This document shows, in pieces, positions 48,205-56,047 of a DNA stretch of 64,000 bases (the first letter of the stretch is position 1; each line of letters starts with the position of its first letter). Under the pieces are notes generated by a model. That model saw only the letters and a program-made list of their open reading frames with translations. It made no database searches and was not told where the DNA came from. The position numbers were made by a program, and so were the translations under genes. This stretch comes from Pseudonocardiaceae bacterium (GTDB lineage: Bacteria; Actinomycetota; Actinomycetes; Mycobacteriales; Pseudonocardiaceae): assembly GCA_046262495.1 (NCBI GenBank), contig JBHEMR010000192.1:2678-66677 (forward strand). Reading direction: 5' to 3'.

Positions 48205-48507
48205 ATGCTGCTGTCCCCGCATGAGCAGGAAAAGCTTCTCGTCCACGTGGCCGGCCAGCTGGCCAGAGAACGCCGGGCCAGGGGATTGCGACTTAACTAC
48301 CCTGAGGCTGTTGCGTTGATCACGTCGTGGGTGTTGGAGCGAGCGCGGGACGGCCGTAGCGTCGCCGATCTCATGGCGGAAGGCCAGCGGGTGCTCAGCC
48401 GGCAGGACGTCATGGAGGGCGTGCCGGAAATGATCTCTTCGGTGCAGGTCGAGGCGACCTTCCCGGACGGCACGAAACTTGTCACCGTGCACCGGCCAAT
48501 CCAGTGA
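48205..48507 (+). CDS. ureA: urease subunit gamma
   Basis: [12 protein letters not shown]...[10 protein letters not shown]...[15 protein letters not shown] is canonical UreA. Confidence 0.95.
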
Positions 48508-50570
48508 CCGACCGGCCCGGGTCACCGGGTGAACTGCTGCTCTTCGGTGAATCGGTCGTGCTGGGGCCGCAGGCCGGTAGTGAGCTGGTCGTGCTGAACA
48601 CCGGCGACCGGCCCATTCAAGTCGGGTCGCACTACCACCTCGCCGCGGCGAACCCGGCGCTGGAAATGGACCGCGCAGCCGCCACCGGAATGCGGTTGGC
48701 GGTGCCGGCCGGTACGTCGGTGCGCTTTGAACCCGGCATCGAACGGGTGGTGCGGGTTGTGCCGCTGGGTGGCACCCGTACTGTGCCCGGCCTGCGACTG
48801 GATGCACCCGATCCCAGCGCGGCAGCTCGGAGAACCGCCAGCCCAGGCCGGTGGACTGTCGAGCGCAGCCGCTACGCCGCCCTCTACGGTCCCACCGAGG
48901 GCGACCGGCTACGGCTGGCCGACACGAACCTGCTCGTGGAGGTTACCGAGGACCGCTGCCGCGGGCCGCACGGCGGGGACGAGGCGGTCTTCGGCGGCGG
49001 CAAAGTGATCCGCGAGTCGATGGGGCAGGCCCGGGCTTCGCGAGCGGACGGTGCAGCGGACCTGGTAATCACCGGCGCGGTCGTGCTGGACCACTGGGGG
49101 GTGGTCAAGGCTGACATTGGGGTGCGAGACGGCCGGATCGTCGGGCTGGGTAAGGCCGGGAACCCGGACATTATGGACGGCGTGCATTCCGCGCTGGTCA
49201 TCGGCCCGGGGACCGAGGTGATCGCCGGCAACGGGATGATCCTGACCGCCGGCGCGGTGGACTGCCATGTGCATCTGATCAGCCCGCAGCAGGTGCCCGA
49301 GGCGCTGGGATCGGGCGTCACCACCTTGATCGGCGGCGGCACCGGACCCGCCGAGGGCACCAAGGCGACCACCGTGACGCCCGGCGCCTGGTACCTGGCT
49401 CGAATGCTGGAGTCCCTTGATGCGCTTCCCGTGAACATCGCGCTGCTGGGTAAGGGCAACACGGTGGGCGAACCGGCGCTGTACGAGCAGGTCGCGGCCG
49501 GGGCCAGCGGTTTCAAGCTGCACGAGGACTGGGGATCCACCCCAGCGGCGATCGACGCCTGCCTGCGCGTTGCCGATGACACCGGTGTGCAGGTGGCGAT
49601 CCACACCGACACCCTCAACGAGGCCGGTTACGTCGCTGACACGCTGGCCGCGATCGGCGGCCGAACCATCCACGCTTACCACACCGAAGGGGCTGGTGGT
49701 GGCCACGCGCCGGACATCATCACCGTCGCAGCGCAGCCGAACGTGTTGCCCAGCTCCACCAATCCGACCCGCCCGCACACCGTGAACACCCTCGATGAGC
49801 ACCTCGACATGCTCATGGTCTGCCATCACCTCAACCCCGCCGTCCCGGAGGACCTGGCGTTCGCAGAGAGCCGGATCCGGCCGTCCACCATCGCGGCTGA
49901 GGACCTGCTGCATGACCTCGGGGCCATCTCGATGATCGGGTCGGACTCCCAGGCGATGGGCCGGGTCGGCGAGGTGATCGTCCGAACCTGGCAGACCGCG
50001 CATGTCATGAAGCGCCGGGGCGGGGCCCTGGCCGGGGACGCGGAAACCTCGGACAACTTGCGGGCGCGGCGATATGTGGCCAAGTACACGATCTGCCCGG
50101 CCGTCGCGCATGGGCTCGACGGTGAGGTCGGCTCGGTCGAAGTGGGTAAGCTCGCCGATCTGGTGTTGTGGCAACCGGCCTTCTTCGGGGTGCGGCCGAA
50201 CGTTGTCATCAAGGGCGGCATGATCGCTTGGGCAGCGATGGGGGACTCCAATGCCTCCATCCCGACCCCGCAGCCGGTGCTGCCGCGGCCGATGTTCGGG
50301 GCTGCCGCGGTGACCGCCGCCGCCACCTCGGTGCACTTCGTGGCTCCGGCAGCGGTGCAGGGCGGCCTCGCCGACCGGCTGGCGGTGCGGCGCAGGCTGG
50401 TGGCGGTGCGCGACACGCGGGCGTTGGGCAAAGCTGACATGCCGCACAATGATGCGCTCCCGCGCATCGAGGTGGATCCGGAAACGTTCACCGTCCGGAT
50501 CAACGGAGAAGTGGTCGAACCCGCTCCAGCGGAAGAGCTCCCGATGGCCCAACGCTACTTTCTGTTCTAA
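48504..50570 (+). CDS. ureC: urease beta-alpha fusion protein (UreB domain fused in frame to UreC)
   Basis: Residues 1 to about 105 form a UreB domain ([24 protein letters not shown]). A linker follows ([18 protein letters not shown]). The remainder is a full UreC ([52 protein letters not shown]). No stop or in-frame start separates the two parts. Confidence 0.9.
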
Positions 50571-51259
50571 TGACGGTGCTGGCGTCGCTGTTGTTGGCCG
50601 ATTCCCGGTTGCCCACCGGAGGCCACGCACACTCCGGCGGGGTGGAGGCCGCGGTCGAGCGCGGTCTGGTGTGTGATGAATCCGACCTCGCCCTCTACCT
50701 TGCCGGCCGGCTGCGGGGTACGGGTTCGGTGGTCGCTGCGGTCGCTGCGGCCGGCTGCGTGCTGGCTGCCAGCATCCCGCCGGTGGACTGGGGGTGCTGG
50801 GACGCCGCGGTCAGTGCCCGTACACCGTCGGCCGCCGCCCGGGAAGCGTCCCGAGCGCAGGGTGTGACGCTTCTGCGTACTGCCCGCCGGGTCTGGCCGT
50901 CCGCTGCTTTGGAGGCGCTGGGTCAGACCCCCCGTCCGCACCACCCGCTGGTGCTCGGTGCCGTAGTAGCCGCCACTGGAGATGGTGCCAACACGGCCGC
51001 GTTGCTCGCCTTGCACCACCTGCTCAGCGGGGCCTGCGCGGCCGCAGTAAGGCTGCTAGGACTGGACCCGATCGCGGTCGCCGCCGTGCAGGCGCGCGCG
51101 AGCCGGTCAGCTGCGCAGGTCGGTTTGCGCGCGGCTGGCGTGGGGCGCGAGGCCGTTGTCCAGCAGGACACCCGGCTGCTGCCTAGCACTGGTACCCCAC
51201 TGCCGGAGCTGCTGGCCGAACTGCACGCCCGCACGGAGGTGACTCTCTTTGCCTCGTGA
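50570..51259 (+). CDS. ureF: urease accessory protein UreF
   Basis: [18 protein letters not shown] is the UreF N-terminal signature; the ATG overlaps the ureC stop by 1 nt. Confidence 0.85.
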
Positions 51260-51869
51260 GCATCGGGCCTTGCGGATCGGCATCGGAGGGCCGGTCGGCA
51301 GCGGCAAAACCGCGCTGGTGGCGGCGCTATGCCGAACGCTGCGCGACGAGCTGTCGCTGGTGGTAGTCACCAATGACATCTACACCACCGAAGACGCCGA
51401 CTTCCTGCGTACCCACGGGGTGCTGCCCCGCGAGCGAATAAGGGCGGTGCGCACCGGCTGCTGCCCGCATACCGCAATCCGCGATGACATCACGGCCAAC
51501 CTCGACGCGGTGGAGGAGCTCACCGCGCGCTACGACCCCGACCTGGTGTTGGTGGAAAGCGGCGGGGACAATCTCACCGCCATTTTCAGCTACGGCCTGA
51601 TCGATGCGCAGATCTTCGTCCTCGACGTCGCCGGTGGCGACAAGGTGCCCCGCAAGGGTGGACCTGGAGTCACCCGCTCCGACCTACTAGTGGTCAACAA
51701 GACCGATCTCGCCCCGTTGGTGGGCGCGGACCTGGACGTGATGCGCCGGGATGCCGTGGCAGTTCGAGGCGGCCGGCCTACCGTCCTGATCTCCCTGCGG
51801 GAGCAGCCCGACGCGGGACCGGTGGTGACGTGGCTACTCAGCCAACTGCGGTCAGCCGTGCCGCGGTGA
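51249..51869 (+). CDS. ureG: urease accessory GTPase UreG (no His-rich N-terminus)
   Basis: [10 protein letters not shown]-loop, CPH metal motif ([10 protein letters not shown]), ESGGDNL, NKTDL. TTG start overlaps the ureF 3' end. Confidence 0.9.
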
Positions 51870-51879
51870 GGGGCTGCCG

Positions 51880-52632
51880 GTGAGGGGCCGGGCCGAGCTC
51901 ACGGTCGAACCCGGACCTGAGGCACCCCGTCTGCGGTGGCGCAGCGCCGCACCGGTGGTGCTGCGCCCGACCGGTCCACACCGGGTGCACCTAGTGCAGG
52001 CCGCTGGTGGTCCGCTGGGCGGCGACGACCTGGCGTTGGACGTCCACCTCGGCGCCGGCTCATCCCTGCAGCTGCGCTCGACGGCAGCCATGGTGGTGCA
52101 GGCGGGCCGCCCTGCGGCGGCCGCGCGGTGGACTGTGGCTGCGGCGCTTGCACGTGGTGCCGTCCTGGACTGGCAGCCCGAGCCGACCGTCGTCTGCGAT
52201 GGTGCGGAGCTGCACAGTCGGATCACCGTTGCCCTGCAGCGGGGGGCCTGCGCAGTCCTGCGCGAGGAGGTGGTGCTCGGGCGAGCAGGCCAGCGCGGCG
52301 GCCGCTTTGTCGGCGAGCTCGCGATCGAGCTGGAGGGCGCTCCCCTGCTGGTGCACACCCTGCTGCTGGACGGTGCTGACCCTGCACTCGCGGGCCCCGC
52401 CGGCACTGGCGGCGCCCGCGTCGTCGGAATGCTCGCGGTCGTGGGGGAGGGGGCCTGCGACCCACCGCAGAGCGCCGGCGAGGAACCGGGACTGCGTTGG
52501 GGGTGTTCAGCGCTGGATGGTCCAGGCTGGCTATTGCTCGCCCTCGGCGATAACCCCGTAGCCGTGTCGACGCTGCTAGACCGTGCCGCGCGGGCGCGAT
52601 CTGCTGGCCGGCGTTCTTACCATGCGGTGTGA
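51880..52632 (+). CDS. ureD: urease accessory protein UreD
   Basis: Position after ureG and UreD-like pattern (GGPLGGDDLALDV...). Lower conservation is typical of UreD. Confidence 0.8.
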   Translation: MRGRAELTVEPGPEAPRLRWRSAAPVVLRPTGPHRVHLVQAAGGPLGGDDLALDVHLGAGSSLQLRSTAAMVVQAGRPAAAARWTVAAALARGAVLDWQPEPTVVCDGAELHSRITVALQRGACAVLREEVVLGRAGQRGGRFVGELAIELEGAPLLVHTLLLDGADPALAGPAGTGGARVVGMLAVVGEGACDPPQSAGEEPGLRWGCSALDGPGWLLLALGDNPVAVSTLLDRAARARSAGRRSYHAV

Positions 52633-53071
52633 TGAAGTGTGCCGTCGAAGACGGTGATCGCGTGACCGGTGAGGTGGACCCGGTCGCCGTGGACGGCGGT
52701 GCGGACCAGGCCCGTCCGGGCGGAGGCTTGCAGTCCGGTGAGGCCGTCCCGGCCCAGGCGGCCTGACCAGTAGGGGGCCAGGGCGGTGGCGATGACCGCG
52801 CGGGCGCCGTCGCGGCGGGCGAGGTGGCTCAGCGCGGTGAGATCCGGATCCAGGCTGCGGACGTCTGCCTCGTCGGGGACACGGCGAGCACGTCGCCGAG
52901 GGCGCCGGTTCCGTAGGCGGCGTCGGGCTTAGCGCGCAGCGCTTCGGGTAGACCATCGGGGGTGGATATCGCGGTGGTAGGCGCGGCGGGGAAGTTCAAG
53001 GTGATGGCGCCGCCGTTGGCGGTAGACCATAGGACCGCGGCGAAGCGGTAGGCGCCGGTTTTGCGACAGCA
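52615..53071 (-). pseudogene. PhzF-family isomerase pseudogene (N-terminally truncated, frameshifted, internal deletion)
   Basis: The minus strand reads ...ITLNFPAAP..PDGLPEALRAKPDAAYGTGALGDVLAV in one frame. After a frameshift near 52880 it continues VPDEADVRSLDPDLTALSHLARRDGARAVIATA|LAPYWSGRLGRDGLTGLQASARTGLVRTAVHGDRVHLTGHAITVFDGTL. The expected SRFFAP...EDPVTGSAH block before ALAPYW and about the first 100 residues are absent. Confidence 0.6.
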
Positions 53072-53152
53072 GGTGATACGACTGAAACCGATCGGTTACA
53101 AGATGGTCACAGTGGTGTCGTGTGATAGTTCTGACTCACTCGTGTGAGTGAG

Positions 53153-53254
53153 GCGCACCTAGGGTTCCGTCGCTGCCCGCAGCGGGTCTGGACCGAGAGG
53201 TGCAGGCGGGCAGTGCACTGCCCGCTCCACGGCGGGATAGAAGCCCGGGAGGTC
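53153..53254 (+). promoter_or_regulatory. guanidine-I (ykkC/yxkD) riboswitch aptamer
   Basis: GCACC-UAGGGUUCCG-U(CGCUG-CCCG-CAGCG)GGUCUGGACCGAGAG-GUGC (P1 GCACC/GGUGC). P2 is GCGGGCAG-UGCA-CUGCCCGC. Then ACGG-CGGGAUAGAAGCCCG-GGAGG. All hallmark conserved blocks are in the canonical order, 50 nt upstream of the ureohydrolase GTG. Confidence 0.8.
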
Positions 53255-53306
53255 AGCCACGCCCGGCTGCCTCGCCGCCGGGCGCCGTGGACGCGGAGGC
53301 CGCACC

Positions 53307-54425
53307 GTGGAGGAACTGCACAACAACTACGGCCCGGAGGCGCGATACGCCGTCGAGGCGGAAGCAGCGCTGCCGACGACGAAATGGGAACAGGAGATCG
53401 CCAGGGGCCTCGAATTGGGCCTACAAGGCGCTGACTCGATCGTCGACCGAAGGATCCCCACCTTCTCCCGTGGCGAGTTGCCGCATTTCGCTGGCATCAA
53501 CACCTTTCTCAAGGCCCCTTACGTCGAGGACGTCCGCCGCTGCGGCGAGTACGACGTGGCGGTGCTCGGCGCCCCCTTCGACGGGGGCACCACCTACCGA
53601 TCCGGAACCCGCTTCGGTCCCCAGGGCATCCGCAAAATCTCCGCGTTGTACGGGCCGTACAGTTTCGAGCTCGGCGTCGATCTGCGAGAGTCGATCACCA
53701 TTGCCGATCTCGGCGACGTGTTCACCATCCCCGGCAACATCGAGAAGACTTTCGACCAGATCTCCAAGGCGGTCGGGCACGTCTTCGCCTCCGGCGCCTT
53801 TCCGGTGGTACTGGGTGGCGACCATTCCATCGGCTACCCGACCACCCGCGCGGTCGCGGAACACCTAGGTGGCGGCAAGCTCGGCATCATCCACTTCGAT
53901 CGCCACGTCGACACCCAGGAAACCGACCTCGACGAGCGGATGCACACCACGCCGTGGTTTCACGCCACGGACATCCCCAACGTGCCGCCGCAGAACCTGG
54001 TGCAGATCGGCATCGGCGGTTGGCAGGCGCCGCGTCCCGGGGTGCAGGTCGGCCGGGAGCGCGGCACCACGATCATGACCGTAACCGACTGCGTGGAGAT
54101 GGGTATTGGGGAAGCCGCGCAGCATGCCCTCGATGTCGCGTGGGACGGCACCGACGCCGTCTGGCTGTCCTTCGACGTCGACTGCCTCGACGCCGCGTTC
54201 GTGCCCGGCACGGGATGGCCTGAGCCCGGCGGCTTCCTGCCCCGCGAGGTGCTCAAGTTCATTCAACTCATCGCCGCGTGCCCGTTGTCAGGCATCGAAG
54301 TCGTGGAGTGCTCCCCGCCCTACGACAACGCGGAGATCACTGCGCTCATCGCGACCCGGGTCATCTGCGACACCCTCGGTTGCCTTGTGCGCGCCGGTCA
54401 CCTACCACGAAAGGCGTCGACATGA
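53307..54425 (+). CDS. arginase/agmatinase-fold ureohydrolase (agmatinase / guanidino-acid hydrolase / guanidine hydrolase candidate)
   Basis: GGDHS, HFDRHVD (DxHxD) and SFDVDCLD metal-ligand motifs. About 50 aa N-terminal extension. SD GGAGG 7 nt before GTG 53307. Confidence 0.9.
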   Translation: MEELHNNYGPEARYAVEAEAALPTTKWEQEIARGLELGLQGADSIVDRRIPTFSRGELPHFAGINTFLKAPYVEDVRRCGEYDVAVLGAPFDGGTTYRSGTRFGPQGIRKISALYGPYSFELGVDLRESITIADLGDVFTIPGNIEKTFDQISKAVGHVFASGAFPVVLGGDHSIGYPTTRAVAEHLGGGKLGIIHFDRHVDTQETDLDERMHTTPWFHATDIPNVPPQNLVQIGIGGWQAPRPGVQVGRERGTTIMTVTDCVEMGIGEAAQHALDVAWDGTDAVWLSFDVDCLDAAFVPGTGWPEPGGFLPREVLKFIQLIAACPLSGIEVVECSPPYDNAEITALIATRVICDTLGCLVRAGHLPRKAST

Positions 54426-55981: not shown

Positions 55982-56047
55982 CGTCGTGAACTCGACAGGG
56001 CCCACGTTCTTAGCGAGCGGAACGTCGGTGGCGTCGAGTTCACGACG
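55982..56047. terminator. perfect 15-bp inverted repeat (36-nt loop) at the island/aroC junction; possible I-shaped terminator
   Basis: CGTCGTGAACTCGAC (55982-55996) pairs with GTCGAGTTCACGACG (56033-56047). No U-tract follows. Confidence 0.4.

Follow-up and report, generated by a model that had tools for sequence, protein, structure and literature searches.

A guanidine-I riboswitch aptamer preceding a guanidine hydrolase and permease operon in a Pseudonocardiaceae bacterium

The described systems closest to the locus considered here are operons in which a guanidine-I (ykkC subtype 1) riboswitch controls a gene for guanidine hydrolase. Funck et al. 2022 reportedly dealt with the gdmH (sll1077) operon of Synechocystis sp. 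PCC 6803, and Bacillus subtilis ykkCD is said, after Nelson et al. 2017, to be a canonical transcriptional guanidine-I riboswitch. The guanidinase of Nitrospira inopinata (9FEK in the PDB) and Synechocystis GdmH (Sll1077; 7OI1/7ESR) were both formerly annotated as agmatinases and split free guanidine into urea and ammonium (PMC11410670, PMC8390497, PMC12186494). Guanidine induction and the ON logic of the homologous operon have been established experimentally in Nitrospira and Synechocystis (PMC11410670, PMC8390497, PMC12186494), and arginase-family genes were early on listed as riboswitch-controlled, among the first ykkC-associated genes (PMC8390497). Here, we studied a 64,000-nt stretch of DNA from a Pseudonocardiaceae bacterium (assembly GCA_046262495.1, contig JBHEMR010000192.1, positions 2,678 to 66,677, forward strand; hereafter the window, to which all coordinates refer), in which positions 53133-53306 are the 5' leader of a two-gene operon consisting of gdmH and an APC permease gene. 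The window belongs to a riboswitch–gene association that is large, conserved, and already described; it adds one more example to an established pattern and leaves the picture of guanidine biology unchanged. A preliminary description of the stretch, made from the sequence alone, had regarded this gene context as much less explored, which does not hold, given that GdmH was characterized in 2021-22 and the trio of riboswitch, APC permease, and guanidinase in comammox Nitrospira in 2024 (PMC8390497, PMC11410670, PMC12186494).

The identity of the leader RNA was assessed with the Rfam 15 covariance models, run with cmscan over the whole window. Guanidine-I (RF00442) was the sole Rfam family above threshold in the 64 kb, with a match at 53148-53253 on the forward strand that reaches 89.1 bits, where the gathering score is 63 (E 1.1e-14 over the full window), and whose alignment spans model positions 1-107 of 107, that is, the model from end to end, with only one non-canonical pair, at the base of P1. 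The match is confirmed as lying far beyond chance. The preliminary description had called the leader a guanidine-I (ykkC subtype 1) aptamer from a series of hallmark blocks, and had proposed a covariance check against the gathering threshold; each of the blocks is present in the sequence where it had been placed, and the full-length score bears out the call. The architecture of the family, a P1-P1a-P1b-P2 stack plus P3 with the blocks CUAGGGUUCCG, GGNCCGAGAG, CACGG, and GGGA..AAGCCCGGGAG, is laid out in the window as follows:

53148..53253 (+): guanidine-I (ykkC subtype 1) aptamer, from the full-length RF00442 match, with pocket residues according to PMC8457001 and PMC6031431
53155-59 / 53199-203 (+): P1 helix, GCACC / GGUGC, read in the sequence
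53159-69 (+): conserved block CUAGGGUUCCG, read in the sequence
53162-53194 (+): P1a/P1b, within the aptamer
53190-99 (+): conserved block GGACCGAGAG, read in the sequence
53206-13 / 53218-25 (+): P2, a perfect 8-bp helix, GCGGGCAG / loop UGCA / CUGCCCGC, from the sequence
53228-32 (+): CACGG pocket block, matching the invariant consensus
53234-36 / 53244-46 (+): P3, GGG / CCC, from the sequence
53247-51 (+): pocket tail GGGAG, matching the invariant consensus

Since the ykkC subtypes are set apart by only a few nucleotides (PMC6031431), such a leader might in principle be a decayed or re-purposed ykkC relative, of subtype 2 or non-functional, in which guanidine sensing has been lost. Guanidine-I aptamers have a conserved adenine (A46 in one crystal structure, A55 in another) in the G-A bulge, two residues long, by which P1 extends into the pocket, and the subtype-2 RNAs reported so far (2a/2b) have a pyrimidine at this position (PMC6031431, PMC8457001). 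GAGAG at 53195-99 carries A at both candidate discriminator positions, so the discriminator is A whichever G-A step forms the bulge; the A46 numbering was placed on GAGAG from secondary descriptions, with the same outcome for either step. An inspection of these positions, also proposed in the preliminary description, thus assigns the RNA to subtype 1. For the subtype-2 (ppGpp/PRPP/NDP) variants one would expect a pyrimidine at the discriminator, conserved 5' and 3' tails that form P0, and a setting of amino-acid, purine, or NUDIX genes; here the discriminator is an adenine and the gene context is one of guanidine catabolism, with a GdmH orthologue and an APC permease downstream, as expected for subtype 1 of RF00442. 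Further, the score exceeds the gathering threshold by 26 bits with every invariant block intact, and the same aptamer has been kept before gdmH in dozens of species, all of which makes a loss of guanidine sensing extremely improbable. A permissive Rfam scan of 53050-53400 returned, beyond RF00442, only junk matches (E >0.6) and no second ykkC-like family, the presence of subtype-2 models in the library being unchecked. Judged from its sequence, the leader RNA is confirmed as a subtype-1 ykkC RNA and a genuine guanidine-I riboswitch aptamer.

The two genes downstream of the aptamer and the ribosome-binding region between them and the leader are:

53295..53309 (+): Shine-Dalgarno (SD) sequence GGAGG at 53295-99, 7-nt spacer, and GTG start codon at 53307-09 of gdmH, from the sequence
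53307..54425 (+): gdmH, a Ni-dependent-type guanidine hydrolase (guanidinase) of arginase fold, 372 aa, from PF00491, PDB matches, and signature residues
54422..55957 (+): APC-superfamily permease, 511 aa from ATG 54422, from PF13520 and PF00324, with TIGR03428 as best match

The product of the first gene had been described as an arginase-fold ureohydrolase of the agmatinase kind. The fold stands (PF00491, E 1e-78 in Pfam), and the agmatinase name has to be given up. The product scores under the cut-offs of all NCBIfam agmatinase, arginase, and HutG (formimidoylglutamase) models, and in a phmmer search of the PDB its best matches were the N. inopinata guanidinase 9FEK (E 2e-218, 83% identity) and Synechocystis GdmH 7ESR/7OI1 (E 1e-169, 66% identity), the next ones (proclavaminate amidinohydrolase, guanidinobutyrase, and agmatinases) reaching E 1e-53 or weaker. 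A signature for guanidine catalysis has been proposed for the N. inopinata enzyme, namely Thr105, His222, Trp313, and Glu344 (PMC11410670); all four residues are kept in the window's protein, as Thr96, His213, Trp304, and Glu334 (mapped through the phmmer PDB alignment, with a 2-residue PDB offset). Because the guanidinase structures lie far ahead of all other PDB matches and the four signature residues are conserved, we assign the enzyme to the GdmH type of guanidine hydrolase. By homology, then, the product of 53307-54425 is an orthologue of the characterized guanidinases and no agmatinase, the latter identity being ruled out by the NCBIfam scores below cut-off together with the 83% and 66% identity to guanidinases. 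The N-termini of homologues fit a start at 53307, as does the PDB alignment. For annotation, where the practical value mostly lies, the name guanidine hydrolase should replace agmatinase.

The permease ATG at 54422 overlaps the gdmH stop codon as ATGA (54422-54425) and is preceded by a GAAAGG Shine-Dalgarno sequence, from which we take the two genes to be translationally coupled. This ATG is the most plausible start, and the start of the longest open reading frame (ORF), at 54278, is probably wrong. The protein matches TIGR03428, "permease, urea carboxylase system", best by far (660.6 bits, model positions 1-474 of 475). The trusted cut-off of 740.45 bits is not reached, so that it is a close relative and, by the curated cut-off, no member of that family. 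It is a probable guanidine importer, and a good candidate for one of a type otherwise found in "urea carboxylase" clusters. Those clusters, now assigned to guanidine (formerly "urea") carboxylase, resemble the window in having a TIGR03428-type permease, guanidine-I control, and guanidine assimilation as their outcome; the window differs in its permease, which at 660 bits stays below the 740-bit trusted cut-off, and in using the ATP-independent GdmH in place of carboxylase, carboxyguanidine deiminase, and allophanate hydrolase.

Among characterized operons, that of the comammox bacterium N. inopinata (Palatinszky et al. 2024, PMC11410670) is alike in its RF00442 riboswitch, in its orthologous enzyme with the same signature residues, in having an APC permease in the operon and, as far as the window's neighboring genes were scanned, no adjacent dedicated Ni chaperones of the HypA/HypB type, and in that urease completes the pathway. 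The gene order differs, however, being riboswitch–gdmH–permease in the window and riboswitch–permease–guanidinase in Nitrospira, and the window's permease is only 32% identical to the riboswitch-linked APC permease of the Nitrospira locus and far closer to TIGR03428 (660 vs 170 bits). Unlike in Nitrospira, the window's operon abuts a urease operon, its expression platform is without a U-tract terminator, and its host is an actinobacterium of heterotrophic type in which the role of the pathway is presumably nitrogen assimilation, not energy. The Synechocystis system (Wang et al. 2021, PMC8390497) likewise has a guanidine-I riboswitch before GdmH and a pathway from guanidine to urea plus ammonium and on through urease. 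Its operon includes hypA/hypB-like genes for Ni delivery and an ABC importer (PMC8390497, PMC12186494), where the window has an APC permease; dedicated Ni-loading partners, GhaA and GhaB, serve the Synechocystis enzyme, and Nitrospira is without such chaperones (PMC11410670). Among the neighbors scanned with Pfam and NCBIfam, which cover part of the window, we found no HypA/HypB-like Ni chaperone genes, the only nearby candidates being ureF, ureG, and ureD. None of these differences from the N. inopinata and Synechocystis operons takes the window's system outside the kind already known. Many GdmH homologues of Micromonosporaceae type (L022, L028, L030, L032, L035, L039, L044, L063, and L074 among the loci described next) have His-rich N-terminal extensions, such as MGFHHHHHHHH…, which might bind nickel; the window's GdmH is without a His-rich tail.

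To place the locus among its relatives, the enzyme was searched for in one genome per species (GTDB), which gave more than 579 relatives, and the best 80 loci were analyzed (L-numbers). These 80 are mostly from Actinomycetota, and the closest are Pseudonocardiales/Pseudonocardiaceae metagenome-assembled genomes (MAGs) at 93-96% identity. At least 64 of the 80 loci carry the ykkC core motif immediately before gdmH, and RF00442 was above threshold in 11/11 of those formally scored. The window shares the order ure…–riboswitch–gdmH–APC–aroC with L001, L002, L006, and L041; Nitrospira loci are also among the relatives, in the order riboswitch–APC–guanidinase, as published. Urease genes lie within 6 kb in 8/80 loci. 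A guanidinase route under a guanidine-I riboswitch is thus widespread in soil Actinomycetota.

How the aptamer might act on gdmH was studied in an alignment of 46 homologous leaders covering the platform (A1) and in a wider set of 55 leaders, which are phylogenetically related. Three pairings between the aptamer and the start codon form the basis of the argument:

53261-67 / 53277-83 (+): helix B, GCCCGGC / GCCGGGC, 7 bp with loop UGCCUCGCC, from covariation
53247..53273 (+): anti-aptamer helix A-ext, GAGG 53249-52 and CAGCC 53254-58 with GGCUG 53265-69 and CCUC 53270-73, from minimum free energy (MFE) folds and conservation
53226..53291 (+): long ligand-free hairpin with outer helix UCCACGGCG 53226-34 / CGCCGUGGA 53283-91, from the unconstrained MFE fold

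Helix B, the 7-bp hairpin that the preliminary description had already noticed, is real by the measure of covariation across the 46 leaders: in alignment A1, 92.2% of its cells are paired, compared with 17-52% when the partner strand is slid, and it has 26 double-sided changes, with an observed covariation score reached by 0/500 shuffles. GGCUG (53265-69) is invariant and GCCGG nearly invariant in these leaders. The core of helix A, CAGCC/GGCUG, has 5/5 pairs in 40/46 leaders, one variant being the compensatory CGGCC/GGCCG. Pyrimidines make up 90% of the 4 nt that follow GGCUG, and three or more of the 5 pocket-tail nucleotides are paired in 44/46 local folds. A-ext and helix B are mutually exclusive, as both use GGCUG, and both are conserved; A-ext also competes with the ligand-bound pocket, from which it takes the GGGAG tail. 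The window's long hairpin encloses GCCCGG 53243-48 / CCGGGC 53278-83 together with A-ext and unfolds P3. Its outer strands UCCACGGCG and CGCCGUGGA are a perfect 9-nt complement, a length reached by 0/200 shuffles and found also in L001-L003, L006, and L023. The equivalent complement overlaps the SD in L010, L011, and L045, and ends directly at it in L009. Folds of 53148-53330 give -68.5 kcal/mol with the aptamer and -94.6 kcal/mol for the alternative. Because the aptamer fold is so much less stable in nearest-neighbor terms, the choice between the two is probably kinetic and made during transcription.

From these pairings we lean, with moderate confidence, toward a translational guanidine-ON switch, possibly helped by Rho polarity. 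When no guanidine is present, GGCUG-CCUC would pair with CAGCC and the pocket tail GGGAG (A-ext), and in the window GCCCGG/CCGGGC and UCCACGGCG/CGCCGUGGA would zip on to give a hairpin of ~66 nt (53226-53291) that destroys P3 and abuts the SD, making the ribosome-binding region harder to open. Guanidine bound during transcription would lock P3 and the tail in the pocket, leaving GGCUG and its flanks to form helix B (53261-83), which would sequester the aptamer-invading strands and so hold the ON state, with the SD and the GTG start accessible. GdmH and the permease would then be made, and guanidine imported and split into urea and ammonium, with the adjacent urease completing the pathway. Output would be set at translation initiation, maybe reinforced by Rho-dependent polarity, and not by a classical U-tract terminator. 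In keeping with such a scheme, opening the region from -18 to +6 costs 14.4 kcal/mol when the 3' half of the aptamer is free to mispair and 11.5 kcal/mol when it is blocked (55 leaders), and is costlier in the free state in 46/55 leaders; the excess of 2.9 kcal/mol compares with 1.1 kcal/mol for shuffled aptamer halves (Wilcoxon 6e-6, a value that overstates independence because the leaders are related). For the window itself the costs are 16.8 (free) and 13.9 kcal/mol (blocked).

Several observations weigh against a translational switch. The opening-energy difference is modest, and comes from the same related sequences. The probability that the SD hexamer is unpaired shows no consistent difference between states (mean 0.42 vs 0.41), with 11-12 leaders more open and 11-15 less open, when unconstrained folds are compared with aptamer-blocked ones and folds with helix A enforced with those with helix B enforced. 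Any occlusion would be marginal in the window, where 3 nt separate the end of the long hairpin from the SD, and with guanidine bound the SD might conceivably pair with CCUC, which lies in the helix B loop. Moreover, the guanidine-I riboswitches characterized so far are transcriptional (PMC12186494). Simple sequestration of the SD, which had been put forward as a possible platform, is not claimed here: the complementarity of GCCUC to the SD exists, two-state accessibility gave no consistent difference, and the wider -18 to +6 opening energy alone gave a modest effect, one that held up against shuffled controls.

The same points bear on a less probable alternative, in which aptamer and ON logic are unchanged and the regulated step is premature transcription termination, with effects on translation secondary; the ligand-free hairpin 53226-53291 would then bring about Rho-dependent or U-tract-independent hairpin termination before gdmH. 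Characterized guanidine-I riboswitches form or avoid a terminator that overlaps P3 (PMC12186494, PMC11410670), and the window's ligand-free hairpin is built alike, its 5' strand being the 3' strand of P3 plus the tail; it leaves the SD uncovered, and the lack of a consistent switch in modeled SD accessibility also fits termination. However, an intrinsic terminator search of 52500-53700 found no terminator-like site, and UUUU occurs in only 4/55 related platforms, which agrees with the earlier remark that the leader has no U-tract. In mycobacteria, RNA polymerase does not terminate intrinsically without a U-tract. A terminator search of L050 also found none, and the Nitrospira locus has one weak terminator-like site. 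The tight spacing of 45-59 nt between aptamer tail and start codon in the 55 leaders, and the complements that overlap the SD in L010, L011, and L045 or abut it in L009, suggest that the target is the ribosome-binding site. On balance we consider termination the less likely main regulated step and favor the translational ON switch.

An OFF switch can be drawn from the same sequence, in that guanidine would lock the GGGAG tail and the freed CCUC/GCCUCGC (53269-75) would pair with GCGGAGGC (53293-53300) and block translation. The preliminary description had seen an anti-SD element in GCCUC, and the complementarity to the SD region is there: GCCUC is complementary to GAGGC 53297-53301 and CCGC 53275-78 to GCGG 53293-96, the CUCC(GG)/(CC)GGAG complementarity recurs in many relatives, and in the ligand-free fold the segment is occupied by the aptamer tail. 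GCCUC can, however, be accounted for at least equally well by pairing with the aptamer's GGGAG tail, and because that tail and the SD resemble GGAG alike, complementarity to the SD is expected as a by-product. To shut down the breakdown and import of guanidine just as it becomes available would be physiologically senseless, homologous operons are guanidine-induced (PMC11410670, PMC8390497), and the preferred fold of the bound state is helix B, which covaries, with CCUC in its loop. We therefore hold an OFF switch to be very improbable.

Compared with canonical guanidine-I riboswitches such as B. subtilis ykkCD, the translational ON switch favored here would keep the aptamer architecture, the pocket, and the ON logic, as well as a competitor of the bound aptamer (PMC12186494), an alternative stem with the P3 3' strand and the tail on its 5' side. 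It differs in that the alternative helix has no U-tract, the covarying helix B and an SD at a fixed ~45 nt taking the place of terminator and antiterminator, and in an extra conserved 5' hairpin before P1, described below. High-GC leaders with a conserved terminator-free platform are a test case for guanidine-I switching without intrinsic terminators. The output module differs between actinobacterial orders, because leaders of Streptosporangiales type (L050, L051, L054-L056, and L070) have a GCCUC…GAGGC hairpin followed by UUUUCC instead of helix B; in these leaders a CUUUUC/GAAAAG pairing covers the SD.

Some other pairings seen in the window were set aside. Three features that appear in folds of the window are not conserved in L001-L006, and we put all three down to chance: a local mini-hairpin GCGG-AGG-CCGC at the SD, a pairing between the aptamer core and codons 2-4 (GGUUCC/GGAAC), and the repeat of GCACC in the P1 5' strand and the SD spacer. 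Pairing of the P3 5' strand with the ribosome-binding site was rejected as a general mechanism, since at least 7 nt are found in only 10/55 leaders, mainly from the window's clade.

Upstream of the aptamer, the leader and its promoter region have features that recur across related loci:

53073..53110 (+): candidate GlnR-type (a-b-a-b) array GTGAT-n6-GAAAC-n6-GTTAC-n6-GTCAC with an 11-bp period, overlapping the -35 region
53121..53126 (+): -10-like hexamer TGTGAT, 6 nt before a conserved GACTCAC, from positional conservation
53135..53152 (+): 5' leader hairpin CUCACUC-GUGU-GAGUGAG, directly 5' of P1, outside the Rfam consensus, with conserved pairing

The 5' hairpin is predicted, with a variable loop, in nearly all related actinobacterial leaders. 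Across 62 loci its 5-bp core, CUCAC/GUGAG, is paired to 98.7%, and a few of the variants seen are compensatory (CCCAC/GUGGG, CUCGC/GCGAG, and CUCAU/AUGAG); the count was made by anchoring, because MAFFT plus RNAalifold misaligned the loop and missed the stem. Possible roles are stabilization of the transcript or stacking on P1. A standard sigma-70 scan gave no promoter match here. The position of a T-rich -10-like hexamer is nevertheless kept in the 62 loci (TGTGAT, TCTACT, TGTACT, or TGCACT), and we infer from it a transcription start near 53133-53134.

The actinobacterial GlnR consensus has the a-b-a-b form gTnAc-n6-GaAAc-n6-GtnAC-n6-GAAAc (PMC10704036). The window's array follows it in having 5-nt boxes with A at position 4 and 6-nt spacers, and in overlapping the -35 region from upstream. 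The window on its own has about as many matches to the pattern as chance predicts (1 found vs 0.99 expected), and support for the boxes therefore comes from conservation across species. In close relatives the pentamer boxes are conserved and the spacers variable; an ungapped profile of the 62 loci, anchored on GACTCAC, has four boxes in fixed register at about -60 to -23; and two-box matches occur in 41/64 loci vs 0.07 expected and three-box matches in 15/64 vs 0.0007. With the strict pattern, no box was seen upstream of ureA, and in the literature searched we found no paper linking GlnR with guanidine or agmatinase-like genes. MtrA or other OmpR-family proteins, which bind similar boxes, may be the binder of the candidate array instead. 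The GlnR-like boxes suggest control of the promoter by nitrogen status besides the riboswitch and, being conserved, that guanidine utilization forms part of the nitrogen-starvation regulon. Tentatively, and somewhat short of an even chance, the gdmH leader across Actinomycetota could be a two-input device that combines GlnR-type boxes (nitrogen limitation), a terminator-free three-strand guanidine-I switch in which A-ext competes with helix B (substrate availability), and a clade-specific 5' hairpin, with the flanking urease making up a compact module from guanidine through urea to ammonium. If so, the Ni supply might be shared with UreF, UreG, and UreD.

The remaining features concern the neighborhood of the operon:

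48205..52632 (+): urease operon with ureA, fused ureB-ureC, ureF, ureG, and ureD, from Pfam and NCBIfam
48205-48507 (+): ureA, from Pfam and NCBIfam
48504-50570 (+): fused ureB-ureC, one 688-aa ORF, from Pfam and NCBIfam
55982..56047 (+): inverted repeat with arms 55982-56009 / 56020-56047, 28 nt, 82% complementary, and a 10-nt loop, from a repeat search

The urease operon lies upstream of the riboswitch and thus outside its control; its product would hydrolyze the urea released by GdmH. It is without ureE, and its beta (residues 24-98) and alpha domains are in one ORF with no stop between them, a fusion that tblastn matches of similar length suggest is common to the close relatives L002 and L006. 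In L069, an Acidimicrobiales MAG, positions 1-262 on the reverse strand match the Rfam family 5_ureB_sRNA (45.8 bits vs a gathering threshold of 40), cut by the end of the locus and antisense to a urease gene; no equivalent Rfam match was found in the window's urease operon. Between urease and riboswitch, 52633-53011 on the reverse strand hold a 5'-truncated, frameshifted remnant of a PhzF-family gene, with a frame change near 52875, that is homologous to the C-terminal ~160 codons of an intact 278-aa gene in L002 (4911-5747, PF02567). Between its ureD and phzF, L002 carries in addition a Phd/ParE-like toxin-antitoxin pair that has no counterpart in the window. Downstream of the permease are aroC, aroK, and aroB (Pfam, NCBIfam). 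The inverted repeat, which has no U-tract, sits in the 147 nt that separate aroC from the stop codon of the permease gene and is a possible operon-end hairpin.

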